From the IMG/VR virus record IMGVR_UViG_3300029721_000142: a DNA stretch of 12,070 nt; one strand, written 5' to 3'. The stretch is from a virus (taxonomy: Duplodnaviria > Heunggongvirae > Uroviricota > Caudoviricetes). The notes below the pieces were generated by a model, which saw only the letters and a program-made list of their open reading frames with translations, did not search any database and was not told the origin of the DNA. This document shows, piece after piece, positions 1-12,070 of this stretch (its first letter is position 1; the number at the start of each line of letters is the position of its first letter). A program made the translations under genes and the position numbers.

Positions 1-1230
1 ATGAGCAGAGCACTTAACAAACTGAGCGATACACAGCTGAGGAAAATCAACGGCACACCCGCCCAAAAAACAGCCTTTCTTAATGACGGTGGAAACCTGA
101 GCGTCAGGCATTCAACCAGTGGCCTTTTAACCTGGTATTTCACTTACAGGGCCGGAACGGGAAGGGGGGCACCACCGGAACGCATTAAGCTGGGAAATTA
201 TCCTGATCTGAGCCTGAAATCAGCCAGGGAAAAAGCCGCCCAGTGTCGCGCATGGCTGGCAGAGGGGAAAAATCCACGTCATGAAATGAATTACACCGTA
301 CAGGAAGCGTTAAAGCCGGTAACGGTTGGCGATGCGCTCACCTACTGGCTTGAGTCGTACGCAAAGGAAAACCGCGTGGATTATGCCGCCCTGAAAAAGC
401 GCCTTAATAATCACGTAATACAGCACATTGGTGCTATGCCGCTGGATAAATGCGAGCTACGGCACTGGCTGGCCTGTTTTGACCAGGTGGCAAAGCGAAC
501 GCCTGTTACTGCCGGATTCTTGCTACAGACGTGCAAACAGGCGCTTAAGTTCTGCCGGAGGCGGCGCTATGCAATCAGCAACGTTCTTGATGATATGAGT
601 GTGGCGGACGTTGGGAAAAAACCGGATATAAGCGAGCGCGTCTTAAGCACCAAAGAACTTGGCGAATTATTGCAGGCACTGGACAAAAAAATATTTTCCC
701 CTTACTACGTCGCACTAATCCGCCTCCTGATTGTTTTCGGATGCCGGACGGTAGAACTGAGGTTATCGGAGATCAGCGAGTGGGATTTTACCGAAATGCT
801 CTGGACCGTGCCGAAAGAACACAGCAAAACGAAGGTGGCAATATTCCGGCCCATACCGGAAGCAATACTGCCGTTCGTCACGCAGCTGGTGGAGCAGAAC
901 AGGCACACGGGCTTATTGCTGGGGGAAGTGAAACAGGAAACAAGCGTGTCGCAGTACGGCAGATTAGCGCACAGGAGGCTAAAACACCCTCACTGGTCAC
1001 TGCATGACATCCGGCGCACCTTTACAACCATGCTGAACGATTTAGGCGTTGATCCGCATGTCGTGGAGCAGCTTACAGGTCATCAGATGCCAGGGATGCA
1101 ACGAGTCTATAACCATTCCCGTTATCTGGATGCGAAACGTGACGCGCTGGATATGTGGACGGAGCGGTTAGGGATACTGGCGGGAACACATGAAAACGTA
1201 ACCACATTGCCAATAGCCAGAGAAATATAA
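1..1230 (+). CDS. int: Tyrosine recombinase / integrase, P4-type
   Basis: 409-aa ORF. C-terminal catalytic region carries the tyrosine-recombinase signature (LHDIRRTF ... LTGHQMPGMQRVYNHSRY, i.e. His-x-x-Arg then the Tyr nucleophile region). N-terminal ~80 aa (LSVRHSTSGLLTWYFTYR) resemble the arm-binding domain of P4-family integrases. Position at the island edge fits. Family assignment from recalled signatures. Confidence 0.9.
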   Translation: MSRALNKLSDTQLRKINGTPAQKTAFLNDGGNLSVRHSTSGLLTWYFTYRAGTGRGAPPERIKLGNYPDLSLKSAREKAAQCRAWLAEGKNPRHEMNYTVQEALKPVTVGDALTYWLESYAKENRVDYAALKKRLNNHVIQHIGAMPLDKCELRHWLACFDQVAKRTPVTAGFLLQTCKQALKFCRRRRYAISNVLDDMSVADVGKKPDISERVLSTKELGELLQALDKKIFSPYYVALIRLLIVFGCRTVELRLSEISEWDFTEMLWTVPKEHSKTKVAIFRPIPEAILPFVTQLVEQNRHTGLLLGEVKQETSVSQYGRLAHRRLKHPHWSLHDIRRTFTTMLNDLGVDPHVVEQLTGHQMPGMQRVYNHSRYLDAKRDALDMWTERLGILAGTHENVTTLPIAREI

Positions 1231-1255
1231 TTTTTTTTGCGATTTTTCAGGATGC

Positions 1256-1315
1256 GGACAACGTGAAACAACGAGACACAACGACGAACAACAAGGAACA
1301 AAATGGAACAACGGG
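1256..1315. repeat. Six tandem 10-bp repeats (ggacaacgtg / aaacaacgag / acacaacgac / gaacaacaag / gaacaaaatg / gaacaacggg; core RAACAAC) just downstream of int
   Basis: Seen directly: strict 10-bp periodicity over 60 bp, one helical turn per repeat, followed by an AT-rich stretch up to alpA. Candidate protein-binding array (integrase arm sites, AlpA or host factor sites). Confidence 0.6.
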
Positions 1316-1595
1316 TTAAAAATCAGCCATCGTAATAACCATTTGATTTTTATAGGTGTACTGTTTTTTTATACACTGGCGAATTACTCTTAAAAATATG
1401 TAAAAAAGGCGTAAAAGTAAAATTTTATGCCTTTGCATCATAATGAATTAAAAGAGTTTTTATTCTCATTCCCCCTGCTTCTGTAAAACGACCGCCGCCA
1501 GTGTTTGCCATTCCACAAACACCCTGACACAATCCGACACAACCCAACCCAATAATCCACCCAATGACTCTTTAAGAAACAACAAAGGGGGAATT

Positions 1596-1784
1596 GTGTT
1601 AAGCACAGATCGCTTTATACGTGAAAAAGAATGTCAGCAACTTACAGGCCTGAGCCGCTCATGTCGGTACCGCCTGGAAAAAGCCGGACAATTCCCATCA
1701 CGGCGTAAGCTGGGCGGTCGTTCCGTTGGCTGGTCTTTATCCGAAGTTCTGGCATGGAAGGACAGCTGCGAGGCAGTTCACTAA
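1596..1784 (+). CDS. alpA: AlpA-family phage transcriptional regulator (small HTH, excisionase-like)
   Basis: 62-aa ORF with GTG start at 1596 and RBS aaaggggga upstream. The sequence LTGLSRSCRYRLEKAGQFPSRRKLGGRSVGWSLSEVLAWK matches the AlpA family pattern (ITGLSRST.YRL...G.FP....LG.R.V.W...E...W). Position immediately after int is typical of P4-like elements and Gram-negative PICIs. Confidence 0.85.
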   Translation: MLSTDRFIREKECQQLTGLSRSCRYRLEKAGQFPSRRKLGGRSVGWSLSEVLAWKDSCEAVH

Positions 1785-1836
1785 TCAGGCTGGCGGCACA
1801 CAGCCGCCACCCATCCACTAATACAGAGATCTAACC

Positions 1837-2212
1837 ATGAATACTGGATATTCTCCCGAACAAGGGCGGGGCTTCGTTCGTCCTGAAAAACAGAATCTGC
1901 AAAATTTTGCCGAAATTATTCCGGTTATTTCCGGCCTTACTGGCGGGAGTGAAACCAATATTGCTAACGCCAGAGCGTTGCAGATGTTTGATGATAAAAA
2001 GGGAGTAAATTTAACTTACACCCCTGACGGCAATCAGAATATGAGCATTATCTCTGAGTCAGGTTTCTACAAACTAATAAAAACAAAAAGCGCCCCGTTG
2101 CCGGAGCGCCTTTGTGAACAATTAACCTACTGCGCAAAAAATGAATCTGAGCAGTGGGATTATATCAACCATGTGGAGAAGCGCCACAATTGCCGAATAA
2201 CGGGCAAAACAA
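1837..2212 (+). pseudogene. Protein-like 5' part of a 423-codon ORF (1837..3108); probable 3'-truncated gene remnant, possibly with a Bro-N/antirepressor-like fragment
   Basis: The first ~125 codons have normal protein composition (ISESGFYKLIKTKSAPLPERL is faintly Bro-N-like). From about 2212 to 2922 the same frame becomes Cys/Ser/Arg-rich nonsense while the opposite strand holds two well-formed small genes and a terminator. The frame reopens as a plausible small gene only at 2923. No in-frame stop exists before 3108. Confidence 0.3.
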
Positions 2213-2233
2213 AGGCCACCCGCTACGGTGGCC
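2201..2233 (-). terminator. Rho-independent terminator for the minus-strand two-gene operon
   Basis: Perfect 7-bp stem GGCCACC / GGTGGCC (2214-2220 and 2227-2233) with a 6-nt loop. On the minus strand it is followed by TTTGTTTTG. It lies about 80 nt downstream of the 62-aa gene stop. Confidence 0.5.
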
Positions 2234-2312
2234 CCTCGACACAAGCTACACGTTATCCCCAACGCATGAGCATTGCCAACAATGCCACATTTGCGGCTGG
2301 TGGGCAATGCAA

Positions 2313-2501
2313 TCAGTCTGGTTCAGTTCGTTGCCATACCTGCAATGAGCGCTTTTCCCTGTACTCTTTAAGGAATTGCTCAAGGGCAAAAGCACATGGC
2401 GCGAATCTTTCTGATTCATGCTCTATCTTTCTGCGCCGTCTTTTCCGTGCCGGTGATAATGTTTTGGTCAATTCTTTATCGGTCATTGTGTTGTCCTGCA
2501 T
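2313..2501 (-). CDS. Small basic protein (62 aa), downstream partner of the RHH gene; function unknown
   Basis: ORF in the same frame and operon as the RHH gene. Contains an arginine/lysine cluster (ARKRRRRK) followed by a predicted helical segment. An alternative start exists at the second Met (MTDKEL...). Confidence 0.45.
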   Translation of the reverse strand: MQDNTMTDKELTKTLSPARKRRRRKIEHESERFAPCAFALEQFLKEYREKRSLQVWQRTEPD

Positions 2502-2543
2502 AGCAATGCGCCGTAGTTCCTCACACCACGGCGCTGATGGTGA

Positions 2544-2723
2544 TTACTCTGGTTCTTTGGCCTTGCGCCGCTGGCGATATTCAACTTCTCGTTTTAATGC
2601 CGCAGTAACAAATTGCCCCGTACTTTCGCCAGGCATTTTTACCGCCTCAACATTGTTCATAACTTCATGCGGAACCCTTGCCGCAACGGTTTGTGATTTT
2701 GCGTTTACTGCTTTTGTCGCCAT
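2544..2723 (-). CDS. Ribbon-helix-helix (CopG/Arc/MetJ-like) DNA-binding protein, 59 aa; candidate repressor or antitoxin
   Basis: Hand-translated from the minus strand (below the ORF-track size cutoff): MATKAVNAKSQTVAARVPHEVMNNVEAVKMPGESTGQFVTAALKREVEYRQRRKAKEPE. Layout is beta strand (TVAARVP), helix A, loop, helix B, typical of RHH proteins. RBS GAGGGG sits 7 nt upstream of the ATG and an in-frame stop lies 5 codons upstream. It faces the operator cluster at 2773-2826. Confidence 0.65.
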   Translation of the reverse strand: MATKAVNAKSQTVAARVPHEVMNNVEAVKMPGESTGQFVTAALKREVEYRQRRKAKEPE

Positions 2724-2772
2724 GTGGTGTACCCCTCATAAAAAACAAATGCAGTATGCAGGAAAAAAAATA

Positions 2773-2826
2773 AGTGTTCAACACTTGACGTGTTTAACAC
2801 CTGGGTTTAAATTGGTGTTCAACACC
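2773..2826. promoter_or_regulatory. Operator cluster: three copies of the palindrome GTGTT(C/T)AACAC overlapping divergent promoters
   Basis: Seen directly: aGTGTTcAACACt (2773-2785), GTGTTtAACAC (2790-2800), gGTGTTcAACACc (2814-2826). A plus-strand promoter candidate is TTGACG (2785-2790), 17-nt spacer, TAAATT (2808-2813). A minus-strand promoter candidate is TTGAAC, 17-nt spacer, CATACT upstream of the RHH gene. Operators overlap the -35, spacer and +1 regions. Confidence 0.6.
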
Positions 2827-2922
2827 TTGTTGGCGCAAGGTGCAGAAACGACGAAACCCGGCAGTGCGCTAACACTAACCGGGCTTCTAACCACCAACGA
2901 TAGCGAAAGTATCGAGGTAGCT

Positions 2923-3108
2923 ATGAGAAATCATACCACACACCCGCAAGGGCGGGACTCGCACGACCTGAATAAATACATCTGGCGTTTTATCGCCCTG
3001 AGCACGGCACAACCGCGCGTGATTACCATCGAGGCCACCAGCGAACAGGAAGCGCGTCAGCAATCTCCTGATGGCTGCGTGATGGTATTCGCTGCCCGTA
3101 TTCGCTAG
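2923..3108 (+). CDS. Small protein (61 aa), tentatively Icd-like/Ash-region-like; first gene of the early operon
   Basis: ATG at 2923 with RBS GAGGT 5 nt upstream. Protein MRNHTTHPQGRDSHDLNKYIWRFIALSTAQPRVITIEATSEQEARQQSPDGCVMVFAARIR. The ATSE.EAR....FAAR motif resembles small Icd-like proteins found upstream of replication genes in P4-like prophages (from memory, unverified). Confidence 0.45.
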   Translation: MRNHTTHPQGRDSHDLNKYIWRFIALSTAQPRVITIEATSEQEARQQSPDGCVMVFAARIR

Positions 3109-3118
3109 GGGGTAGGCC

Positions 3119-3340
3119 ATGTGCAATAAAACCACACCGGACGCAGCAGCCGCCGCGCTCACTACGCTGATGCACGCGCTTATTGATATTGAATGCACGG
3201 CAGAGCTTGCGCAGGGAGAAGAACAGAAAGACCGGACAACGTTCGCCCAGGAATGTATCCGATACATCGCAACGCGGTCACTGAATGACGCTAAAAATAT
3301 TCTTGTTGCCGATTGTGAAAATGGGGGGGGTTATGCGTGA
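3119..3340 (+). CDS. Hypothetical protein (73 aa)
   Basis: ORF with RBS gggggtagg upstream, tightly packed in the early operon. The C-terminus runs through a G8 homopolymer and overlaps the next gene by 8 nt. Confidence 0.5.
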   Translation: MCNKTTPDAAAAALTTLMHALIDIECTAELAQGEEQKDRTTFAQECIRYIATRSLNDAKNILVADCENGGGYA

Positions 3341-3554
3341 TGATCGTTTTAATTCCCTGAAACAGGAATTTTCCGGCGTTCCTGATGATGCGGCTGATGC
3401 GCTTTCGTCAATGCCAGAGCTTATTAGAGCGGCTTTTTTCTTACTTTCCACGAGAGAATATAAATCAACGGGGCTTGATGTACTGAATATCGCCGCCGAT
3501 TATGCTGATTTCGTGACAGAGGTTATTTTAAGAAAAACGACGGACGGGGATTAA
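3333..3554 (+). CDS. Hypothetical protein (73 aa; MRDDRFNSLKQEF...)
   Basis: The ORF track starts this frame at 3285, but the ATG at 3333 directly follows the G8 tract (RBS-like) and avoids a long overlap with the upstream gene. Start choice is an inference. Confidence 0.5.
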   Translation: MRDDRFNSLKQEFSGVPDDAADALSSMPELIRAAFFLLSTREYKSTGLDVLNIAADYADFVTEVILRKTTDGD

Positions 3555-3555
3555 T

Positions 3556-3789
3556 ATGCGTGATATTTACCACGAAACAATAGACCGCGCATTTCTTGCA
3601 CTTTCTCACAGTGAAAACATGCTGGAAATATTGCGCATATGGCTTGAAACACTTGGCGACAATGAACGCGACAAACAAAAATCAAGAATTGCCACGGCAT
3701 TAATAACGCTTCTTGAGCCTGTAATAATGGAACTGCAAGAAATAGATCTATTGCACGACAGATATAAAGAACAGCACACCGGAGAATAA
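3556..3789 (+). CDS. Hypothetical protein (77 aa)
   Basis: ORF starting 2 nt after the previous stop, with protein-like helical composition. No family recognised. Confidence 0.55.
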   Translation: MRDIYHETIDRAFLALSHSENMLEILRIWLETLGDNERDKQKSRIATALITLLEPVIMELQEIDLLHDRYKEQHTGE

Positions 3790-3794
3790 AAATA

Positions 3795-4094
3795 ATGAAA
3801 CTTAAATATTCTGGCTTAACTGCCAGTGGCAACACTCACCCTAAATTTACGCGCGGTGATATTTACCGCGACCAGTACGGCGGCACGGTAATGATTAAGG
3901 GCGTGGAAGAACGGCGCGTAACCTACCGCCGTGAAGGTTACGAATATGATTGCGTGATGCCTGTTTATCAGTTCCGGCGTGATTTTTCTCTGGTACAGAC
4001 CGCGCCGCATAACGTGCCCACCAGCAACGCCAGGGCACGGGCAAACATCCAGAAGCTGAAAACCATGATTAACGGATTCAGGGGCAAGAAATGA
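3795..4094 (+). CDS. Hypothetical protein (99 aa)
   Basis: ORF whose stop overlaps the rep start (ATGA at 4091-4094), implying translational coupling. No family recognised with confidence. Confidence 0.55.
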   Translation: MKLKYSGLTASGNTHPKFTRGDIYRDQYGGTVMIKGVEERRVTYRREGYEYDCVMPVYQFRRDFSLVQTAPHNVPTSNARARANIQKLKTMINGFRGKK

Positions 4095-5491
4095 AAAGCG
4101 CACCGAACTTAAAAAAACAGCCTTACGACAAGATGACCGAAGTCATTATTTTTGCGGGTAGTGATGCCTGGGCACATGCGAAACAGTGGCAGGAACAGGA
4201 CGGGCGACTGGCTGGCGATAATGTGCCTCCCGTTGTGCTGGCTGATGATCAACTGGATGAACTGGCAGACCTGAGAATCATCGACGAGGGGCGCTATTGT
4301 GTCCGGCTGTACAAGGCAGGCCACATCAGGCCATCAAATATTAATGCCATTGCGCACAAGCTGGCGGCGGCGGGTGTAACTGATGCGAATTATTACCCCG
4401 AAGGGATGCACAGCCATATGCGGGAGAACTGGCGCGAATACCTGGAACGGGTGCGCGGGAAAGAGCCGGTGGAAGAAAAAAACCACCAGCGAAAAACCAC
4501 GCTACCGATGAGCGTTGGATCTACCGGATACGACACGCAACTGGATTACGTGGTTAAGGGGATTATTCCGGCGGTATCGCTATGCAGCATATACGGGGCT
4601 AGCGGGTCCTATAAATCATTCCTTGCCGGATCGTGGGCGTGCCATGTTGCCACTGGTCGCCAGTGGGGAGGCCGCAGGGTTGCACATGGTGCGGTTCTCT
4701 ATGTGGTTGGTGAAGGCGGTATAGGTGTTCCGCGTCGTGTAAAAGCCTGGGAGGTTGTGCACGATGAGCAGGTGAAAAATCTGTATCTGGTAAACCGCCC
4801 CATCTTTCCGGCTGCCCCGCTTGATGTTGATGAAATGGTTATCGCTGCCCGTCAGGTGGAGCGGGAAACGGGTAAACCTGTACGCATGATTATTCTGGAT
4901 ACGCTGGCGCGTTGCTTTGGTGGGAATGATGAAAATGATTCCCGTGATATGGGGGCGTTTATCCGTGGTTGTGACGAACTGAAACGACGCACAGGGGCCA
5001 CGGTGCTGGTGGTTCACCATTCCGGCAAGGATGAGACGAAAGGCGCGCGCGGTTCCAGTGCATTTCGTGCTTCGCTGGATGCTGAATACCGGATACGCAG
5101 GGAGGACGCAGGAAGCGAAGCGCTGGTTATCTCATGCACCAAAATGAAGGACGCGGAGGAACTCAAAGAAGCCGCATATGACTTACGCGTGGTGGAGCTT
5201 TTTACCGACGCTGACGGTGAATTAATCACGTCGCTGGTGGTGGTGGATGATCCGCGCCCTCCTGTTGAACTGGAGCGCATCGAGGAGGCAGGGAACAAGA
5301 CGGAAAACCATACCGCGCTATGGGGGTGCATCCGTTCACGCACACAGAACGGCGACAAGTGCACGATCCCGCTGTTACGTGATGACATGAAAAAGCTGGG
5401 GTATGAAATGAAAAACTTCCGGCGCTGGCTGTACAAGCTGGAAAAAGATGGGGTTATTCGTATCGATGGGGATGATGTAGCGCCGCTATAA
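4091..5491 (+). CDS. Replication protein: RecA-fold RepA/DnaB-like ATPase (AAA_25 type) with an N-terminal TOPRIM-like region
   Basis: 466 aa. P-loop IYGASGSYKSFLAG, Walker B MIILDTLARC, and the RepA-type motif VLVVHHSGKDETKGARGSSAFRASLD. N-terminal EVIIFAGSDAWAHA ... PVVLADDQLDE is suggestive of a TOPRIM-like domain (inference). Followed immediately by an iteron array. Confidence 0.8.
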   Translation: MKSAPNLKKQPYDKMTEVIIFAGSDAWAHAKQWQEQDGRLAGDNVPPVVLADDQLDELADLRIIDEGRYCVRLYKAGHIRPSNINAIAHKLAAAGVTDANYYPEGMHSHMRENWREYLERVRGKEPVEEKNHQRKTTLPMSVGSTGYDTQLDYVVKGIIPAVSLCSIYGASGSYKSFLAGSWACHVATGRQWGGRRVAHGAVLYVVGEGGIGVPRRVKAWEVVHDEQVKNLYLVNRPIFPAAPLDVDEMVIAARQVERETGKPVRMIILDTLARCFGGNDENDSRDMGAFIRGCDELKRRTGATVLVVHHSGKDETKGARGSSAFRASLDAEYRIRREDAGSEALVISCTKMKDAEELKEAAYDLRVVELFTDADGELITSLVVVDDPRPPVELERIEEAGNKTENHTALWGCIRSRTQNGDKCTIPLLRDDMKKLGYEMKNFRRWLYKLEKDGVIRIDGDDVAPL

Positions 5492-5682
5492 AAGTGAGGA
5501 GCAAAAGCGAGGGGGATAGAAAGAGGGCCAAAATTAGCCCGCTCTCCCTCACTTTTCGACCTGTATACATCCTCAAAAGTGAGGGGTAAAAAAATACTTA
5601 TGAAACACACACATAGAAAAACCGAAAATCCCAACTGCGACGAAGTGAGACGCTTGAAAAAGTGAGGCGAAAAAGTGAGAGG
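5491..5682. repeat. Putative origin of replication: iteron array of AAGTGAG(G/A) repeats around an AT-rich core
   Basis: Seen directly: AAAGTGAGG (5491-5499), variant AAAGCGAGGGG (5504-5514), inverted CCCTCACTTTT (5546-5556), AAAAGTGAGGGG (5575-5586), GAAGTGAGA (5642-5650), AAAAAGTGAGG (5657-5667), AAAAGTGAGAGG (5671-5682). An AT-rich stretch lies at 5587-5630. Iterons directly downstream of rep are the usual ori arrangement in PICI/SaPI-type elements. Confidence 0.55.
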
Positions 5683-5691
5683 TTGCGAGAA

Positions 5692-5943
5692 ATGACCCAA
5701 AAACGCAGAGACAGAACAGAGCCAAAATATAAAGCGTTAGACATGACTGAGCACACCTTAAAGGTGGCAATCAGAACGATAGACCGCCACACGCGGGAAG
5801 GATACGCGAAGGAACATCCCGACCTGATAAGCGCATTCATGACCACGGCGGCGGCAAACTTTGCCACGCTGACAGAACGGGAGATTGCCGAAGCGGAACA
5901 GGTAACAACCATCAACGTTAAAACCGGAGAGGTGGAATCATGA
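5692..5943 (+). CDS. Hypothetical protein (83 aa)
   Basis: ATG at 5692 with RBS GAGAGG upstream. The ORF-track start at 5662 lies inside the iterons. The stop overlaps the ssb start (ATGA). Confidence 0.5.
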   Translation: MTQKRRDRTEPKYKALDMTEHTLKVAIRTIDRHTREGYAKEHPDLISAFMTTAAANFATLTEREIAEAEQVTTINVKTGEVES

Positions 5944-6350
5944 CAGCACAGATAGCCGCTTACGGGCGGCTGGTGGACGACCCGCAGGTAAAACAGACCA
6001 GCAAGGGCACACCGATGACGCTGGCGCGTATGGCGGTCCCCCTTCCGTGCAGCCAGGCAGATGACGGAACGGCGACGATGTGGTTATCCGTCCTGGCATT
6101 TGGCAGACAGGCCGAAGCACTGGAAAGGCACCGCAAGGGTGAACTCCTGAGCGTGGCGGGTAACATGCAGATCAGCCAGTGGACTGGGCAGAACGGAGAA
6201 ACGCGGCAGGGTTATCAGGTTATTGCAGACAGCGTAATCAGTGCCCGTGCGGCACGTCCTGGCGGGAACAGACGCAAAACCACAGGCACACAGGGTAATC
6301 AGCTACCAGCGGGAGGCGATGACCCTTACGGTGATGATATTCCGTTCTGA
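5940..6350 (+). CDS. ssb: Single-stranded DNA-binding protein (phage-type SSB)
   Basis: 136 aa. OB-fold-like core (IAAYGRLVDDPQVKQTSKG ... WLSVLAFGRQAE ... GELLSVAGNMQISQWTGQNGETRQGYQVIADSV), a Gly/Gln-rich linker, and the hallmark acidic C-terminal tail DDIPF. Confidence 0.9.
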   Translation: MTAQIAAYGRLVDDPQVKQTSKGTPMTLARMAVPLPCSQADDGTATMWLSVLAFGRQAEALERHRKGELLSVAGNMQISQWTGQNGETRQGYQVIADSVISARAARPGGNRRKTTGTQGNQLPAGGDDPYGDDIPF

Positions 6351-6360
6351 GGGGGTGAGG

Positions 6361-6609
6361 ATGGTACATGACCGCATAGCGGAGGAACTCGAGGCAAAAG
6401 GCTTTTACCGGAGGGCGGCGGCACGATGGGGTGAAGTCATGCAACTGGTGGAGACAGACAAGGAACGGCATCAGGTTACGATGCGACGGCTGGAATGTTC
6501 CAGGAAGGCACAGAGGCCACCGGAGCCGCCAACGGAGAACTATGCAGACCTGAGAAATGCAGTAAATCGCACTTACGCAGACATGGGGCTGAGCAAATTA
6601 GCAGAGTAG
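6361..6609 (+). CDS. PerC-family-like transcriptional regulator (82 aa)
   Basis: ATG at 6361 after RBS gaggggg; the ORF-track start at 6241 overlaps ssb and is rejected. The N-terminus MVHDRIAEELEAKGFYRRAAARWGEVM matches my recollection of the PerC family signature (LE.KGLYRRAA.RW). Last gene before the double terminator. Confidence 0.55.
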   Translation: MVHDRIAEELEAKGFYRRAAARWGEVMQLVETDKERHQVTMRRLECSRKAQRPPEPPTENYADLRNAVNRTYADMGLSKLAE

Positions 6610-6632
6610 GAATACCAGAACCACACCACACA

Positions 6633-6654
6633 GCCGGAGCAATCCGGCTTTTTT
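6633..6654 (+). terminator. Rho-independent terminator (GCCGGA gcaa TCCGGC + T6)
   Basis: Seen directly: 6-bp GC stem, 4-nt loop, six T residues, 24 nt after the PerC-like stop. Confidence 0.7.
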
Positions 6655-6660
6655 GCGCCC

Positions 6661-6702
6661 AAAAAAAGCCCGATAAGGTCAGAGGTGGCTTATCGGGCTT
6701 TT
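6661..6702. terminator. Second, bidirectional-type terminator (A7, GCCCGATAAG, 11-nt loop, CTTATCGGGC, T4)
   Basis: Seen directly: 10-bp perfect stem flanked by an A-run and a T-run. Tandem with the previous terminator, separating the early and late operons. Confidence 0.65.
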
Positions 6703-6779
6703 GCATATGAGGTTTTTTGGTGCACTGACACACATGATCGGGATAATCATTTCATAATTTGCAACGCAACTCAATTTCA

Positions 6780-6830
6780 TTGCACAAAATGCAATCATGA
6801 TTATAATCATAACTGGATGAACATCCAGTT
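6780..6830 (+). promoter_or_regulatory. Late-operon promoter (TTGCAC, 16-nt spacer, consensus TATAAT) embedded in two perfect palindromes
   Basis: Seen directly: -35 TTGCAC (6780-6785); -10 TATAAT (6802-6807); 14-bp palindrome ATGATTATAATCAT (6797-6810) covering the -10; palindrome AACTGGATG-aa-CATCCAGTT (6811-6830) covering the predicted +1. RBS aagagga precedes the ATG at 6864. Confidence 0.55.
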
Positions 6831-6863
6831 ATGATTTTTTAAGTCAAAGAGGAATTTCTTACT

Positions 6864-7070
6864 ATGGCTGAAGAGAAAAAAGGCGGTGTTTCGGTGTACA
6901 TAAGCCCCGACATCGTGAAGGCGCTCAAGGAACGCCACCAGCAGAACGTAAAAGCAGGCATTGCGGCAGGACTTGATCCGCTGGCGATGGTTGAGCCGTC
7001 AACAGGCTGGCAGGTACGCGCCTATTTACGCGCGGCGCTGGGTATGAATCAGGTTCACGGGGGTGAATAA
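6864..7070 (+). CDS. Hypothetical protein (68 aa), first gene of the late/capsid operon
   Basis: ORF with a good RBS. Its stop overlaps the capsid gene start (TAATG), implying translational coupling. Function unknown; a scaffold or size-determination role is speculation. Confidence 0.6.
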   Translation: MAEEKKGGVSVYISPDIVKALKERHQQNVKAGIAAGLDPLAMVEPSTGWQVRAYLRAALGMNQVHGGE

Positions 7071-8125
7071 TGACAGTAAAAGCAATGGCACTTAACACTA
7101 ACCAGCTTTTTGCGTACCTGAATCGCGGGGATATTGCGGAATTTAAATTCAGTCCGCTGTTTACCACGCTGTTTTTCCCGAACGTGGCGACATTCAGCAC
7201 GCAAAACATCATGCTGGATACCCTGGACATTGAAGAAGTCACCATGTCGGCGTTTTGTTCGCCTATGGTGGGTAGCCAGGTTCAGCGCGATAAAGGGTAC
7301 GAAACCAGCACGATTAAACCTGGCTACATGAAGCCAAAGCACGAAATCGATCCAACGAAAACCATCATGCGCATGGCTGGAGAAGATCCGGCACAGCTTA
7401 ACGACCCTACCTATCGCCGTATGCGCCTGATTACTGGCAATATGCGCCGCCAGATAAACGCCATAAAAGCGCGCGTGGAATGGCTGGCGGTAAATGCGGT
7501 AACGACCGGAAAAAACATCATTGAAGGCGAAGGCATAGAGCGCTATGAAATCGACTGGAAGATACCGGAAAAAAACATCATAGAGCAGGCCGACGGGAAA
7601 AAATGGTCAGAGCAGGACAAAGAAACCCACGATCCAATCTATGATATCGAACTATACGCCGATCAGGCTGGTTGCCCCGCAAACGTCATGATTATGGGCG
7701 CTGAGGTATGGCGAACGTTACGCAGCTTTAAAAAATTCCGTGAGCTGTACGATCTTTCCCGTGGTTCAGAGTCCGCCGCAGAGCTGGCCTGTAAAAACCT
7801 GGGCGAAGTGGTGAGCTTTAAAGGCTATCTGGGCGATATTGCCCTTATCGTCTATTCCGGCAAATACACTGACAGCGACGGCACAGAAAAATATTTCCTT
7901 GAGCCTGATTTGCTTGTCCTGGGCAACACCAACAATAAAGGGCTGGTGGCCTATGGTGCGATTATGGATCAGGACGCAGTAAGAACGGGCGCAACGCAAA
8001 ACATGTTTTACCCGAAAAACTGGATTGAGGACGGCGATCCGGCGATTGAGTACGTGCAGACGCACAGCGCACCGCAGCCGGTTCCGGCAGATATTCGCAA
8101 ATTTGTTACCGTCAAAATTGGTTAA
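7070..8125 (+). CDS. Major capsid protein, lambda gpE-like (HK97 fold)
   Basis: 351 aa. Blocks of recalled similarity to lambda gpE (341 aa): EFKFSPLFTTLFF vs KFKFDPLFLRLFF; KPGYMKPKHEIDP vs TPGYVKPKHEVNP; DPTYRRMRLITGNMR vs DPAYRRRRIIMQNMR; KWSEQDKETHDPIYDIELYA vs EWSKRDKSTYDPTDDIEAYA; YPKNWIEDGDPAIEY vs YPKNWVTTGDPAREF. Similar length. Confidence 0.9.
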   Translation: MTVKAMALNTNQLFAYLNRGDIAEFKFSPLFTTLFFPNVATFSTQNIMLDTLDIEEVTMSAFCSPMVGSQVQRDKGYETSTIKPGYMKPKHEIDPTKTIMRMAGEDPAQLNDPTYRRMRLITGNMRRQINAIKARVEWLAVNAVTTGKNIIEGEGIERYEIDWKIPEKNIIEQADGKKWSEQDKETHDPIYDIELYADQAGCPANVMIMGAEVWRTLRSFKKFRELYDLSRGSESAAELACKNLGEVVSFKGYLGDIALIVYSGKYTDSDGTEKYFLEPDLLVLGNTNNKGLVAYGAIMDQDAVRTGATQNMFYPKNWIEDGDPAIEYVQTHSAPQPVPADIRKFVTVKIG

Positions 8126-8136
8126 CGGGGGATTCT

Positions 8137-8472
8137 ATGGACACTCCATACATTGAGTTATTTGCAGGCAGTCAGCAGGTCGCCACGACGCTGGTACATT
8201 TTGCCGCTGATGCTGGCGTTATTCAGGAATTTACCCCGCTGATGCTGGCGGACAATGGCGAGTTTAAGCCGTGGGATGGTAAGGAATCTGGCAAGGCTGT
8301 TTATCTGACCTCGTACCCTGTGGACACGTCAAAGCAGAAATCAGCACAGTGTTACAAGACGGGGATATTCAATATTGCCGCCGTTAACTGGCCTGAGAGC
8401 GTCGACACCGATGCGAAAAAATGCGCCGCCTTTGCGGGTTCCGGCGTATCCGTTCAGCCGCTGGCCCGATAA
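8137..8472 (+). CDS. Head decoration protein, lambda gpD-like
   Basis: 111 aa vs lambda gpD 110 aa. Recalled motif similarity: TPLMLADNGEFKPWDG vs TPLMLDTSSRKLVAWDG; YKTGIF vs YKSGTF; WPE; KKCAAFAGSGVS vs KKRTAFAGTAIS. Gene order is E-like then D-like, the reverse of lambda. Confidence 0.85.
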   Translation: MDTPYIELFAGSQQVATTLVHFAADAGVIQEFTPLMLADNGEFKPWDGKESGKAVYLTSYPVDTSKQKSAQCYKTGIFNIAAVNWPESVDTDAKKCAAFAGSGVSVQPLAR

Positions 8473-8484
8473 GCAGGGGGAACG

Positions 8485-8898
8485 ATGGCAACGAATGAAA
8501 GCATCATGACGCTACCGCTGGCGAGTAAATTTAAAGCCGAAGCGCGGGCAATGGCTGACAGAGGTTTATCAACCTATGAGGCCGTATATCAACTAAACAA
8601 ACTGGAAGAGCAGGACAAGCCGCGCGCTGATGCGATTATGGCGCTTCATGAGCATAAAGACTATCAGCCGCTGTTACGTGCAATGGCAAACGTGCCATGT
8701 ATTAGCGTCGATAATGCTCGTGAAATCCTGAACATGACCATAGAGCAGGAGCGCCCAAAGGTTGCACCAGAGCTTACCGCAGCCTTTGAAAACTTTATGG
8801 ACATGCACAGCCCGCAAGCCGTATCAGCTGGCATGGCATACGATGGCAGAAACCAGGGCGATGACGGCGACATCGATCGCATACTGAAAACCATCTGA
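8485..8898 (+). CDS. Hypothetical protein (137 aa) between the decoration gene and cos
   Basis: ORF with RBS cagggggaacg, followed by a terminator. No family recognised. It occupies the position that gpFI has after gene E in lambda (positional analogy only). Confidence 0.6.
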   Translation: MATNESIMTLPLASKFKAEARAMADRGLSTYEAVYQLNKLEEQDKPRADAIMALHEHKDYQPLLRAMANVPCISVDNAREILNMTIEQERPKVAPELTAAFENFMDMHSPQAVSAGMAYDGRNQGDDGDIDRILKTI

Positions 8899-8903
8899 GA
8901 CAA

Positions 8904-8926
8904 GGCCGGAGAAATCCGGCTTTTTT
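8904..8926 (+). terminator. Rho-independent terminator (GCCGGA gaaa TCCGGC + T6)
   Basis: Seen directly. The hairpin is nearly identical to the one at 6633-6654 (loop gaaa vs gcaa). Confidence 0.65.
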
Positions 8927-8927
8927 A

Positions 8928-8992
8928 CGGGTCCTTCCTGGAATTATGGCCCGTTACGGGGCGGCGACCTCGCGGGTTTTCGCTATTTATGA
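8928..8992 (+). other. cos-like element, left copy: cosQ-like flank + cosN (GGGCGGCGACCT, 8959-8970) + 22 bp of lambda-like left-end sequence; no R-site array
   Basis: Seen directly: cgggtccttcctggaattatggcccgttacg GGGCGGCGACCT cgcgggttttcgctatttatga. The 12-mer equals the phage lambda cohesive end, and the flanks resemble the lambda right end (ACGGGTCCTTTCCGG...GTTACG) and left end (CGCGGGTTTTCGCTATTTATGA), quoted from memory. It is an inverted duplicate (63/65) of 9676-9740. Confidence 0.75.
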
Positions 8993-9059
8993 CGTTTTTC
9001 CGTGAAGGTGACACCACCACCACTTGATTAATATTTAACCATGCAGTTAAGGTAACATT

Positions 9060-9494
9060 ATGATTGATAAAGCTTGTTTTGTAAGTCAGCAGGAAATAGC
9101 TGAACATTTCAAGGTTAACAGAACCACTATTCGCGCATGGACCAAACAGGGGATGCCGTATCTTAATGCGGATCGCGGAAAGTCTGGCGGTTATCACATC
9201 GGGCATACATTGCTTTGGTCTTCAGGTAAAAGCCGTCTTGAGGCCATCAGATATCACGTAGAAACCAGTGCGCTGGAAAAAATTATGTTTGCCAGGCTGC
9301 TTTCATCTGAGCGTGACGAGTACTCCAGTGAAGAAACAGAACATCGATTTGATGAAGGTTTGCAGATTTACGGCTATTCACCGGAAGATGTGAGCAAGGC
9401 ACGAAATAAAATGGCTGGCTTTCTGGCTGGGTGGCGTCATGCCGTAAGCGTTCGCCGTGCCAGCATGGAGCAATCAGCCGATACAGAACAGTAA
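9060..9494 (+). CDS. Small terminase subunit-like protein with a Nu1-type N-terminal DNA-binding domain; candidate packaging-specificity or redirection factor
   Basis: 144 aa. N-terminus MIDKACFVSQQEIAEHFKVNRTTIRAWTKQGMPYLNADRGKSGGYHI parallels lambda Nu1 MEVNKKQLADIFGASIRTIQNWQEQGMPVLRGGGKGNEVLY (winged HTH). The C-terminal half is unlike the Nu1 region that binds gpA. The gene sits between the two cos copies. Confidence 0.8.
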   Translation: MIDKACFVSQQEIAEHFKVNRTTIRAWTKQGMPYLNADRGKSGGYHIGHTLLWSSGKSRLEAIRYHVETSALEKIMFARLLSSERDEYSSEETEHRFDEGLQIYGYSPEDVSKARNKMAGFLAGWRHAVSVRRASMEQSADTEQ

Positions 9495-9562
9495 AGCCGA
9501 TAACTTGTTAATCACTCGCAGCAATGCATGTGATTTGTGCACACTTTCGGTTAACTGGTTCG

Positions 9563-9740
9563 ATGTCCGGTTTTAGTGTCTGTTTTTTGCGCATGTCCGG
9601 TTCATGGAAAGCATGTTTTTATATTTTTCATATGGTTAACTTGCAGAGAAACCGGACATGGATCCCGAAAAATTTTCATAAATAGTGAAAACGCGCGAGG
9701 TCGCCGCCCCGTAACGGGCCATAATTCCAGGAAGGACCCG
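9563..9740 (-). other. Complete cos-like site in inverted orientation: cosQ-like flank, cosN (9698-9709), three R-type repeats ATGTCCGGTT, AT-rich bend region
   Basis: Seen directly. cosN lies on the minus strand as aggtcgccgccc. Repeat copies are at 9563-9572 and 9593-9602 (direct) and 9650-9659 (inverted, nearest cosN), with an AT-rich segment at 9611-9633 between them. This mirrors the lambda cosN-R3-I1-R2-R1 layout but with a different repeat sequence (lambda R elements contain CGTTTCC). Confidence 0.75.
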
Positions 9741-9773
9741 ACGACACCAGACTATCAGAACGATGGGGGCACA

Positions 9774-10055
9774 ATGACAGAAGCCGAAATACTGCGATTA
9801 ATCCGCCGCGTTGCCGGAATCAGCCAGCAGGCCGACGAACAGACCACGCAGCCGGACAGCGTGACCGCCGAAAATTATGTTCGTGTGGTTGCTGAGGTGA
9901 TTCGCCGTAATGGTATCCAGCTTAATGATGTGGATATGCGCAACATACGGATCCGCGTTCTTGAAATGCTGGCCTACAATCGCCGCGTGGCACTGTATCG
10001 GGAAACGGAGAAAATTACGTACCACTGGAAGAAGCCGGAGCGGTTGCGGCGGTAA
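9774..10055 (+). CDS. Hypothetical protein (93 aa), last island gene
   Basis: ATG at 9774 with RBS gatggggg 5 nt upstream. The ORF-track start at 9576 would read through the cos repeat and is rejected. No family recognised. Confidence 0.55.
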   Translation: MTEAEILRLIRRVAGISQQADEQTTQPDSVTAENYVRVVAEVIRRNGIQLNDVDMRNIRIRVLEMLAYNRRVALYRETEKITYHWKKPERLRR

Positions 10056-10057
10056 CT

Positions 10058-10217
10058 GGTTGATATTTTCGAAATTCGCCAGCGGCGAACATCGGGGAAA
10101 CCAGCCTAACCCGTTGATATTTTCGGGAACCTCAAATTGAAGAGGTCGGAAACATAACCCGTCATATTCTGGATGCTGATAATTACCACGCAGCCCATTA
10201 AGGCCTAACCCGTTGAT
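10058..10217. repeat. Degenerate direct repeats at the island/chromosome junction (GGTTGATATTTTCG; CCTAACCCGTTGATATTTTCGGG; TAACCCGTCATATT; GCCTAACCCGTTGAT)
   Basis: Seen directly at 10058-10071, 10105-10127, 10155-10168 and 10203-10217. Candidate right attachment-site arm sites; the left att is outside the window so a core direct repeat cannot be confirmed. Confidence 0.4.
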
Positions 10218-10460
10218 TCTTCCACAATCCCCCATTGGGGGAGGCTGGGCGGCCTGCTGTGGGCTTTTCCACCATTGGTGGAAAGGCGCACATCTGGATC
10301 ATCATTACGGTGATCAAGGGTATGTAAAACCCACCAGCCTGATTGACATTTAACCGGAAAAAAGCCAGGTAGCCCCGTTATGGGGATCCCCATATCGACA
10401 TTAACGCCCCTCATGAATTGGCGCGCTTCCCCCTGGAAAGATGACCCGCCTGTATATTTC

Positions 10461-10490
10461 TTGTGTCTATTTGTTCCACGTTGTTTCATA
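10461..10490. repeat. Three tandem 10-bp repeats (ttgtgtctat / ttgttccacg / ttgtttcata), the inverted counterpart of the RAACAAC array at 1256-1315
   Basis: Seen directly. The reverse complement reads tatgaaacaa / cgtggaacaa / atagacacaa, sharing GAAACAACG, GGAACAAA and GACACAA with the left array. Lies 120-150 bp downstream of the phoQ stop. Confidence 0.4.
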
Positions 10491-10609
10491 CAGTGCAACG
10501 ATCGGTGTAGTTAATGGTGTAGTCAATTTGCGATTTTTAGCACTTTTTGCAGTGCAAATCATTTAATTAAATCAATGGCTTGCCTTGATGTAGTGATAAA
10601 AGGGCATAT

Positions 10610-12070
10610 TTATTCATCTTTCGGCGCAGAATGCTGGCGACCAAAAATCACCTCCATCCGCGCACCGCCCAGCATGCTCTCTCCGGCGACGATTTTACCC
10701 TCATATTGCTCGGTGATTTCGCGGGCTACCGCCAGCCCTACACCTTGCCCAGGGCGTAAAGTATCAACCCGTTGACCACGGTCGAAAATGACCTCTCGCT
10801 TGCTTAATGGAATACCGGGGCCATCATCCTCGACCACAATATAGAGATGCTCGTCGGTTTGCCTTGCAGAAATTTCGACAAACTCGAGGCAATATTTACA
10901 GGCATTATCCAGCACGTTGCCCATCACCTCGACAAAATCGTTCTGCTCACCGACAAAGCTGATCTCTGGCGAAATATCGAGAGAGATATTGACCCCTTTG
11001 CGTTGATACACTTTGTTCAGCGCTGAGGTGAGATTGTCCAGCAGTGGGGCGACCGGATGCAGCTCGCGGCTGAGCAATGTCCCGCCGCGCATACTGGCAC
11101 GATGCAGGTAGTAGCCAATTTGCTGTGAAATGCGGCTGATTTGCTCCAGCATTACCGGCTCAGCATCACTGACGCTCATCTTTTCACTACGCAGAGAACG
11201 CAGCGTACTTTGCAGCACCGCCAGTGGCGTTTTCAGACTATGGGTCAGGTCGGTGAGCGTCGTACGGTATTTGTCGTAACGTTCGCGTTCACTTTTTAAC
11301 AATCGGTTCAGGTTTCGTACCAGACTGGTCAGTTCTCGCGTTGTGGCTGGATTGAGCAATTCGCGGTTATGTTCTTCCAGTTCGCGGACTTCTTTTGCCA
11401 GGGCTTCGATGGGGCGTAAACTCCACCAGGCGGCGACCCACAGCAGCGGGATCACTAACAGCAGATTGGCTGAGAGCACATAGATAAACCAGCTCCAGAC
11501 CATATAGGAACTTTTTAGCTCCACCGGAATGGTATCCACCACCACAATGGTTAATTTTGGCATCCGCGATGTTGCCGGGTAGACGTTTACTGCCACCGAG
11601 TGGGTCATCTCCGCGTCGTCATCATCTTCCCGCACTTCCTGCAACTGTTGCTGTATCGAATGATCTCCACTCAGCAAGAGGCTGGTATCGTTAACATCCG
11701 CTTCAATTTCATGAAAACCATTCGATTTCAGCCAGTCAGGCTGGATCATCTTCATCAGCCAGGGCACGTCACGTTGCGCCCATAAAAGCTGCCCGTTCTC
11801 ATCATAAATTAGCGTCATGGTGGGGCTTTGCTTGTCGATATTTTCGGGTAACTCGACATGCAACTTATTGTTTTCCCACTTCGCAAGGGTATAGAACAGA
11901 TTGCTCTCGCCACGTAACAGCCGAAACGTAGTTTTATCGAAACTGACGCTATAACCGATCAGCGCGACCATTCCGTAGGCAAGCGAAAGCACCAGTACTA
12001 CCGCTGCCGTTGCCAACAGAAAACGTACCCGCAGCGAGAGCGGGAAAAAAAGACGCAGTAATTTTTTCAT
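10610..12070 (-). CDS. phoQ: Sensor histidine kinase PhoQ (PhoP/PhoQ two-component system)
   Basis: 486-aa ORF spanning to the window edge. Two transmembrane segments flank a periplasmic sensor domain with the acidic patch EDDDDAE, followed by HAMP, the phosphoacceptor His box ([12 protein letters not shown]) and an ATPase domain with G boxes (DDGPGI, GQGVGL). Sequence matches E. coli PhoQ as I recall it. Confidence 0.97.

Follow-up and report, generated by a model that had tools for sequence, protein, structure and literature searches.

What kind of element occupies the 3' end of phoQ in the 12,070-nucleotide stretch of IMG/VR virus record IMGVR_UViG_3300029721_000142 (the whole of which we call the window), and on what does it depend? 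A sequence-only reading had taken the compact gene island next to phoQ for a helper-dependent satellite rather than a prophage, sitting at what might be an uncommon integration locus. The island is very probably a phage-inducible chromosomal island (PICI) of the classical Gram-negative kind and the EcCICFT073 type, integrated at the phoQ 3' end by its own tyrosine integrase. The element, its integration site, its attachment (att) core, and its packaging-hijack mechanism are all already published, and the window holds a close variant of a known PICI.

EcCICFT073 is the first well-studied E. coli PICI and the prototype of the Gram-negative cos-type islands (Fillol-Salom 2018, PMC6092414; 2019, PMC6739421). 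In strain CFT073 (L005) it has the same gene order as the window island and lies at the same site; together with the near-identical proteins, this bears out the satellite interpretation. At the DNA level, identity to CFT073 is 97.4% over window positions 5764-12070, 94% over 1-3137, and 88% over 3109-4456, with no match over 4456-5764 (most of rep and the origin). AlpA, PerC, the decoration protein, the 93-aa protein, and RppA are 100% identical to their EcCICFT073 counterparts, followed by Int (405/409 residues, 99%), the capsid protein (98.9%), c1498 (68 aa, 98.5%), c1501 (137 aa, 93%), SSB (87%), and the YlcI-like protein (59%); none of the island genes is truncated, and for most of them identity to the mobilisable prototype is 93-100%. 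The two elements share the roxA-phoQ site and core, the gene order, and a cos1-rppA-cos2 cassette with an inverted second cos, but differ in size (11.4 kb for EcCICFT073, 10.78 kb for the window island).

The components by which PICIs are recognized are found here as follows: an integrase (with its Int domains) and a specific site with direct repeats (the core in the window, and the repeats in the near-identical contig L011); an AlpA-family activator after int; an island-encoded replication initiator with iterons immediately 3' of it, in an allele differing from that of the prototype; a size within the range of about 8-15 kb (10,782 bp in L011) without lysis, tail, portal, or large terminase genes; and an Rpp protein together with a cos that combines a phage-like cosN with a non-phage cosB. 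All five SatelliteFinder PICI core components are present, including a capsid-morphogenesis homologue, which makes the island 'Type A' by the component definition of PMC10085698. What distinguishes the neighboring classes is missing: the portal, head protease, connectors, HNH, and both the small and the large terminase subunit that capsid-forming PICIs encode for themselves; the psu-delta-sid operon, epsilon/Ash, and alpha primase-helicase of P4-like satellites; and, in the window, the contiguous terminase, portal, tail, lysis, and CI/Cro-type immunity genes of lambdoid prophages.

Scans of the open reading frames (ORFs) of the window with Pfam and PHROGs gave no match to any family of portal, large terminase, tail, or lysis proteins, in agreement with the sequence-only reading, and the parts that it had listed (int, alpA, RepA with iterons, SSB, PerC, head genes, cos, and phoQ) all lie where it had placed them. 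Besides int, RepA, the capsid protein, and phoQ, only two ORFs are longer than 200 aa, and both look spurious; according to the ORF list, all island genes are on the plus strand except two small leftward ones. The features of the window, with the evidence for each in brackets, are:

1-1230, plus strand: int, tyrosine integrase (Pfam Arm-DNA-bind_3 5e-18, Phage_integrase 6e-17)
1231-1595, plus strand: int-alpA spacer, with 10-nt tandem repeats (1258-1311, 1526-1553) and a promoter-like site (1505-1533) upstream of alpA
1596-1784, plus strand: alpA, activator of the rightward island genes (PF05930 3e-18; 62/62 residues as in EcCICFT073 AlpA)
2313-2723, minus strand: leftward mini-operon of a YlcI/YnfO (DUF3950) gene (2723 to 2544) and a gene for a 57-aa protein (2486 to 2313)
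2923-3789, plus strand: Icd-like gene (2923-3108), then three small conserved ORFs (3119-3340, 3333-3554, 3556-3789) (L011 gene calls; PHROGs, with matches to phrog_6196 at 1.7e-50 and to phrog_5146, phrog_2512, and phrog_2196)
3795-4094, plus strand: DUF4222 protein, overlapping the rep start (PF13973 1.6e-24)
4091-5491, plus strand: rep, a RepA/AAA_25 helicase-type replication initiator of 466 aa (AAA_25 2.4e-43)
5490-5682, no strand: putative replication origin (five AAAGTGAGR iterons around an A-rich stretch)
5692-5943, plus strand: 83-aa conserved protein (phrog_1231 4e-53)
5940-6350, plus strand: SSB (Pfam SSB 1.2e-15)
6361-6609, plus strand: PerC-family protein, an accessory gene (PF06069 2e-35; 82/82 residues as in CFT073)
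6864-8898, plus strand: head-gene block c1498-c1501, encoding 68-aa, gpE-like, gpD-like, and 137-aa proteins (Pfam and PHROGs)
7070-8125, plus strand: major capsid protein, lambda gpE-type (Phage_cap_E 2e-52)
8137-8472, plus strand: head decoration protein, lambda gpD-type (HDPD 2.5e-17)
8485-8898, plus strand: 137-aa protein resembling the C-terminal scaffold part of a lambdoid head protease (phrog_53, pairwise match)
8928-9059, plus strand: cos1, with a GGGTCCT motif, cosN at 8959-8970, and a non-lambda cosB region reaching rppA (sequence match)
9060-9494, plus strand: rppA, encoding a 144-aa helix-turn-helix protein (144/144 residues as in EcCICFT073 c1503)
9663-9740, minus strand: cos2, inverted relative to cos1, with cosN at 9698-9709 (78-nt inverted repeat)
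9774-10055, plus strand: 93-aa conserved protein, c1505 (phrog_1561 2e-53; 93/93 residues as in CFT073)
10056-10601, no strand: island right arm (arm-type repeats GGTGTAGTTAAT / GGTGTAGTCAAT at 10504-10527)
10602-10611, no strand: attR core GGGCATATTT (K-12 comparison)
10610-12070, minus strand: phoQ, chromosomal flank outside the island (intact 486-aa ORF, 100% identical to K-12)

The borders follow from comparison with an island-free genome at phoQ, as the sequence-only reading had suggested. In K-12, the spacer between roxA (ycfD) and phoQ is only 75 bp long. The window is 100% identical to K-12 starting exactly at 10602, and on the roxA side, relatives cease to match K-12 after the same GGRCATATTT. 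Because the limits of K-12 identity on the phoQ and roxA sides coincide there, the core is GGGCATATTT (10602-10611), which overlaps two bases of the phoQ stop codon. This core, derived independently from K-12, matches the published EcCICFT073 core GGACATATTT, for which the att gene is given as ycfD-phoQ (Table S1 of Fillol-Salom 2018, PMC6092414). On the left, int is the leftmost gene, as the sequence-only reading had it, but position 1, which it had treated as the island edge, is the int ATG and only the edge of the window. In contig L011 (GCA_024519035.1), identical to the window over its full length but for 2 of 12,070 bases (99.98% identity), a second perfect core copy lies 171-180 nt upstream of the int ATG, giving a 10-bp direct repeat and an island length of 10,782 bp; we therefore rejected position 1 as the island edge and place the left 171-180 nt, with attL, outside the window. 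The left neighbors of int in L011 are roxA, then pepT and potABCD, and these are likewise found there in L001, L002, and CFT073; phage genes left of int, which the sequence-only reading had named as a sign against a satellite, are absent, with no contiguous prophage genes in that position in L001, L002, L005, or L011.

The site itself is in frequent use. The empty roxA-phoQ junction is intact in 4822 of 5426 complete E. coli genomes, so the island is not core genome content, the other finding that was to speak against a satellite; the roxA-attL-island junction is present in 600 (about 11%), as compared with 604 genomes without the empty junction. At least 80% of the window is carried by 384 genomes, and the exact cos1-rppA-cos2 cassette by only 53. 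With this occupancy, and with ycfD-phoQ published as the attachment site of both EcCICFT073 and EcCIRM12579 (Table S1, PMC6092414), the notion of an uncommon integration locus does not hold: roxA-phoQ is an attachment site used by PICIs and, to judge from 600 of the 604 genomes, not by prophages. The island does not use a tRNA site, and a tRNA scan of the window found nothing.

Near both island ends there are GGTGTAGTYAAT repeat pairs, and the GGTGTAGTTAAT / GGTGTAGTCAAT pair of the right arm also occurs just upstream of int; in sequence, the GGTGTAGTYAAT pairs look like integrase arm sites. An arm-type repeat, CGGTGTAGTTAATGGTGTAGTYAATT, lies inside both ends (window 10502-10529; L011 5863-5890). 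For EcCIDI14, Table S1 of PMC6092414 lists this very sequence under 'att core', and an arm repeat may perhaps have been mistaken there for a core. Motifs of the TTGTTCCA/TTGTTTCA type form the 10-nt tandem array just after int (1258-1311) and recur in opposite orientation near the right end (10458-10488) and the left end (L011 about 5826-5850); they may perhaps be binding sites for a recombination accessory protein.

The packaging cassette is close to that of the prototype. The exact lambda cosN 12-mer GGGCGGCGACCT occurs twice, at 8959-8970 (+) and 9698-9709 (-), and no shuffled sequence yields two copies; each cosN falls within one of the arms of an inverted repeat (78 nt, 91% complementary) that flanks rppA. 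In cos1 there is also a GGGTCCT motif, which we take to be cosQ-like. The cos1 site matches 'CFT073 cos.1' of the published Fig. S5, upstream of rppA. Similarity to lambdoid phages spans cosQ and cosN and stops near 9010, before cosB, which agrees with the published finding that island cosB differs from phage cosB. The 144-aa packaging gene is no small terminase: it encodes RppA ("redirecting phage packaging"), identical to c1503 at 144 of 144 residues, and matches the RppC crystal structure 6hlk at 5e-31. As published, RppA heterodimerizes with the helper small terminase, whereby recognition of the phage cos is blocked and specificity for the island cosB is gained. For transfer of EcCICFT073, the helper small terminase is required; efficient helper-mediated transfer needs cos1, deletion of both cos sites abolishes transfer, and deletion of cos2 raised it (PMC6092414). 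Because cos2 is inverted, it should not terminate packaging that began at cos1.

How would such an island spread? EcCICFT073 has been mobilized experimentally by lambda, phi80, and the CFT073 prophage (phage 4) (PMC6092414, PMC6739421). Its alpA is switched on by helper phages rather than by the SOS response itself, AlpA activates island genes including its own promoter (PMC6092414), its excision and replication depend on int and the replication gene, and the DNA packaged with lambda is phage-sized. This mechanism was demonstrated experimentally in the prototype; because AlpA and RppA are identical and the cos sites near-identical, the same steps are the best prediction for the window island, on the strength of sequence identity. 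A lambdoid cos-type helper entering lytic growth would thus provide a phage signal that switches alpA on, and AlpA would activate the rightward island genes. Int would excise the island, and the island replicon (RepA/AAA_25 acting on the AAAGTGAGR iterons, helped by the island SSB) would produce concatemers. RppA would pair with the helper small terminase (lambda Nu1 type), and the mixed DNA-binding domain would ignore phage cosB and read the island cosB at cos1; phage packaging would be blocked, and the helper terminase would cut and package island DNA, which would exit in helper-made full-size capsids with helper tails and integrate at roxA-phoQ in a new cell. We infer that a lambda-size head would take about four island copies (4 x 10.78 = 43.1 kb), a length that lambda packaging limits accommodate.

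One alternative is a PICI by descent that is now an immobile relic, retained in the chromosome but neither inducible nor packageable. Decay is seen in some relatives at the same site: in the O26-type island L002, repA contains an internal stop and an ORF is truncated, and in L001 the PerC gene is missing; the mobility of the window copy, moreover, is read from sequence. Such a relic would nevertheless be hard to reconcile with full-length genes so close to those of the mobilisable prototype, an exact cosN at both sites, intact iterons, perfect att repeats in the near-identical copy L011, and ratios of nonsynonymous to synonymous substitution (dN/dS) far below 1, and we regard it as improbable. 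The roxA-phoQ islands as a group, including EcCIRM12579 (600 of 5426 genomes, as above), share the site and the integrase arm with the window island but are mosaic, others having 146-aa or 180-aa Rpp/TerS-like alleles, no PerC gene, or a broken repA. L002 (strain 20.1) combines the internal stop in repA (9852-11252) with a 180-aa 'terminase small subunit' allele that replaces RppA, which suggests decay or allele turnover within the island family.

The identification as an EcCICFT073-type PICI must also be weighed against the following. Mobility is attributed to the window copy through its identity to the prototype; the roxA-phoQ relatives include decaying ones, as just described; attL is placed outside the window by way of the near-identical contig L011; the replication module is not that of the prototype, and our literature searches found no experimental test of it in a classical PICI; and the head genes have no role in the model yet are under purifying selection, which makes the model incomplete. 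The last two points deserve closer consideration.

The swapped replication module is the main difference from EcCICFT073. Where the window has the 466-aa RepA/AAA_25 helicase with its own iterons, EcCICFT073 has a 584-aa D5_N/DUF5906/Pox_D5 primase-helicase, and the two Rep proteins are alike only in their N-terminal 122 aa (62% identity; window 4091-4456, L005 10242-10616). This N-terminal domain corresponds to no Pfam family and is fused to two unrelated helicase engines, the recombination breakpoint lying within the gene. The five AAAGTGAGR iterons (four direct, one inverted) span 5491-5680, directly past the repA stop; the chance expectation is 0.18, and none of 200 shuffles reaches five. 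Published PICI origins likewise sit just 3' of rep, and we infer from the sequence that the RepA-type iterons probably function as an origin. The exact 466-aa RepA is found at roxA-phoQ also in L009 and L011, and an identical RepA at other att sites in three capsid-forming PICIs (L007, L008, and L010) and in an island with a ClpP-capsid fusion (L006). At the right end, the 93-aa gene is common to classical and capsid-forming PICIs and present in L006-L011. PICI front and back modules recombine freely, and exchange of front-half modules between PICI types has already been described (PMC10085698). L006 encodes a 629-aa ClpP-protease/capsid fusion, and L006, L007, L008, and L010 all end with the same 93-aa gene.

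As for the head-gene block, comparisons were made with the proteins of the CFT073 icd prophage (terminase, gpE/gpD-type head genes, and S49 protease), a lambdoid cos-type prophage that lies at icd about 7 kb from the CFT073 island (L004/L005, 1.378-1.44 Mb). The island capsid protein shares 45% identity with that of this helper-type prophage, and among 402 phage matches none exceeds 47%; for the decoration protein, identity to the phage counterpart is 43%. Over 83 aa, the 137-aa protein shows 39% identity to the lambdoid head protease in its scaffold-like C-terminal end, and it matches phrog_53 at positions 495-567 of 583; a tblastn search against phages gave a single match, so its scaffold-like assignment depends on phrog_53 and on the pairwise match to the C-terminus of the CFT073 prophage protease. 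When island variants are compared, dN/dS comes to 0.06-0.14 (capsid gene), 0.08-0.16 (decoration gene), and 0.25-0.38 (137-aa gene), values similar to that of int. All three genes are under purifying selection. In EcCICFT073, deletion of c1499 or c1500 left interference and transfer unchanged, and derivatives in which c1498-c1501 had been replaced by cas9 or melA (the latter with phi80 delta-cosN as helper) were still produced in lysates and still transduced. Literature searches found no described function for island head genes.

Might these gpE-, gpD-, and Nu3-like proteins serve to construct heads or change their size, in the manner of the capsid-forming PICIs or of SaPIbov5 with its Ccm? 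An island that encodes capsid, decoration, and scaffold-like proteins, all kept by selection, whose capsid lineage stands so far from any phage capsid protein in the collection, and whose identical RepA front end is common to true capsid-forming PICIs, gives this idea some appeal. The capsid-forming PICIs (EcCIEDL933 type; Alqurainy et al., bioRxiv 10.1101/2022.09.08.507074) have the same int-alpA-DUF4222-rep-SSB-PerC front half, and L007, L008, and L010 have the very same 466-aa RepA and terminal 93-aa gene as the window; however, their capsid protein is HK97-type, they also encode protease, portal, connectors, HNH, TerS, and TerL, and they build their own small heads, whereas the window island is without this head and terminase set and depends on RppA and lambda-type cos. 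Neither the ORF list nor the Pfam and PHROGs scans gave portal, protease, connector, HNH, or terminase genes, and the prototype, as noted, transfers with these genes deleted or replaced and with lambda has only phage-sized DNA packaged. SaPIbov5, a cos-type S. aureus island, resembles the window island in carrying the helper's cos site and a homologue of the helper major capsid protein, but its Ccm demonstrably resizes helper capsids, whereas no phenotype was found for the E. coli homologue; SaPIbov5 is, furthermore, controlled by the Stl repressor rather than an AlpA activator, and their sequences are unrelated. We consider a capsid-making or capsid-remodelling satellite very unlikely.

That leaves elements of other families. 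A P4-like satellite dependent on a P2-type helper would share with the island a P4-family-type integrase, an AlpA/Vis-like regulator, an Icd-like gene, a size near 11 kb, and the need of a helper for particles, but Psu, Delta, Sid, Ash/epsilon, and the P4 alpha primase are found in neither Pfam nor PHROGs scans, the cos sites are lambda-type rather than P2/P4-type, RppA targets a lambda-type small terminase, the helper is lambdoid rather than P2-like, and islands of the window type have no plasmid state (PMC6092414), so we give this explanation almost no credence. Nor is the island, save by the slimmest chance, a decayed lambdoid prophage remnant keeping only head genes and cos: gpE/gpD homologues and a lambda-like cosQ and cosN could derive from a lambdoid phage, but the compact layout recurs at the same site in hundreds of genomes (the 600 junctions, and the 384 genomes with most of the window), the head genes are only 45-47% identical to those of phages, and the island, which is AlpA-controlled and carries a non-lambdoid replicon of its own, has no CI/Cro, lysis, or tail remnants.

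The remaining features of the island concern its smaller genes and signals. Gene callers report a 423-aa ORF at 1837-3108 (+) as one protein, which we rejected as a composite frame: its middle is antisense to the two leftward genes, which are supported by PHROGs (phrog_949 8.6e-22; phrog_21027 1.6e-15) and end at a strong terminator; the Icd-like gene makes up its last 61 codons, and its N-terminus is weakly Ant/Bro-like. An open frame persists here in L001 (474 aa) and CFT073 (428 aa), but L007 and L008 have no long ORF. RefSeq annotation of relatives agrees with the genes of the leftward mini-operon, beyond which lies the minus-strand terminator with a 12-bp stem (2113 to 2086). The mini-operon (window 2086-2850), which a divergent promoter-like region separates from the rightward Icd-like gene, may be a small regulatory switch or antisense RNA; published work describes these islands as unidirectional. 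An Rfam scan gave only a sub-threshold symR-like match at 2850-2922 (-), scoring 33 bits where the gathering score is 61, which we do not treat as real. Totals from the promoter and terminator scan were no better than those of shuffles, and only individual strong hairpins were used. There is a terminator-like hairpin at 6632-6657 after the PerC gene. At 6805-6836, 28 nt upstream of the head-gene block, lies a perfect palindrome of 15+15 nt (AATCATAACTGGATG aa CATCCAGTTATGATT) with a T-run after it; it could act as an operator or terminator. We do not assert a role of PerC as an activator of the LEE virulence locus, given that the PerC-like genes of EcCICFT073 and EcCIEDL933 had no effect on LEE1 fusions in a later paper.

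With thousands of PICIs catalogued, the island carries little weight as a discovery. For annotation, the 144-aa gene should be called RppA rather than small terminase or hypothetical protein, the 78-nt inverted repeat a cos1/cos2 pair, and the 423-aa ORF not a gene. A strain with this island should both resist and exploit lambda- and phi80-type phages. The only research interest of the locus lies in a diverged head-gene set that is kept by selection and can be removed without known effect. The published head-gene tests used lambda, phi80, and the resident CFT073 prophage; with other natural helpers, the island head proteins might co-assemble with or replace those of the helper. That the head-gene block (68-aa, gpE-like, gpD-like, and Nu3-like proteins) is a working capsid module with an overlooked role is, in our view, doubtful. 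Were it so, the island head proteins could resize, stabilize, or re-label particles, and classical E. coli PICIs would occupy a functional middle ground between pure capsid thieves and capsid-forming PICIs.

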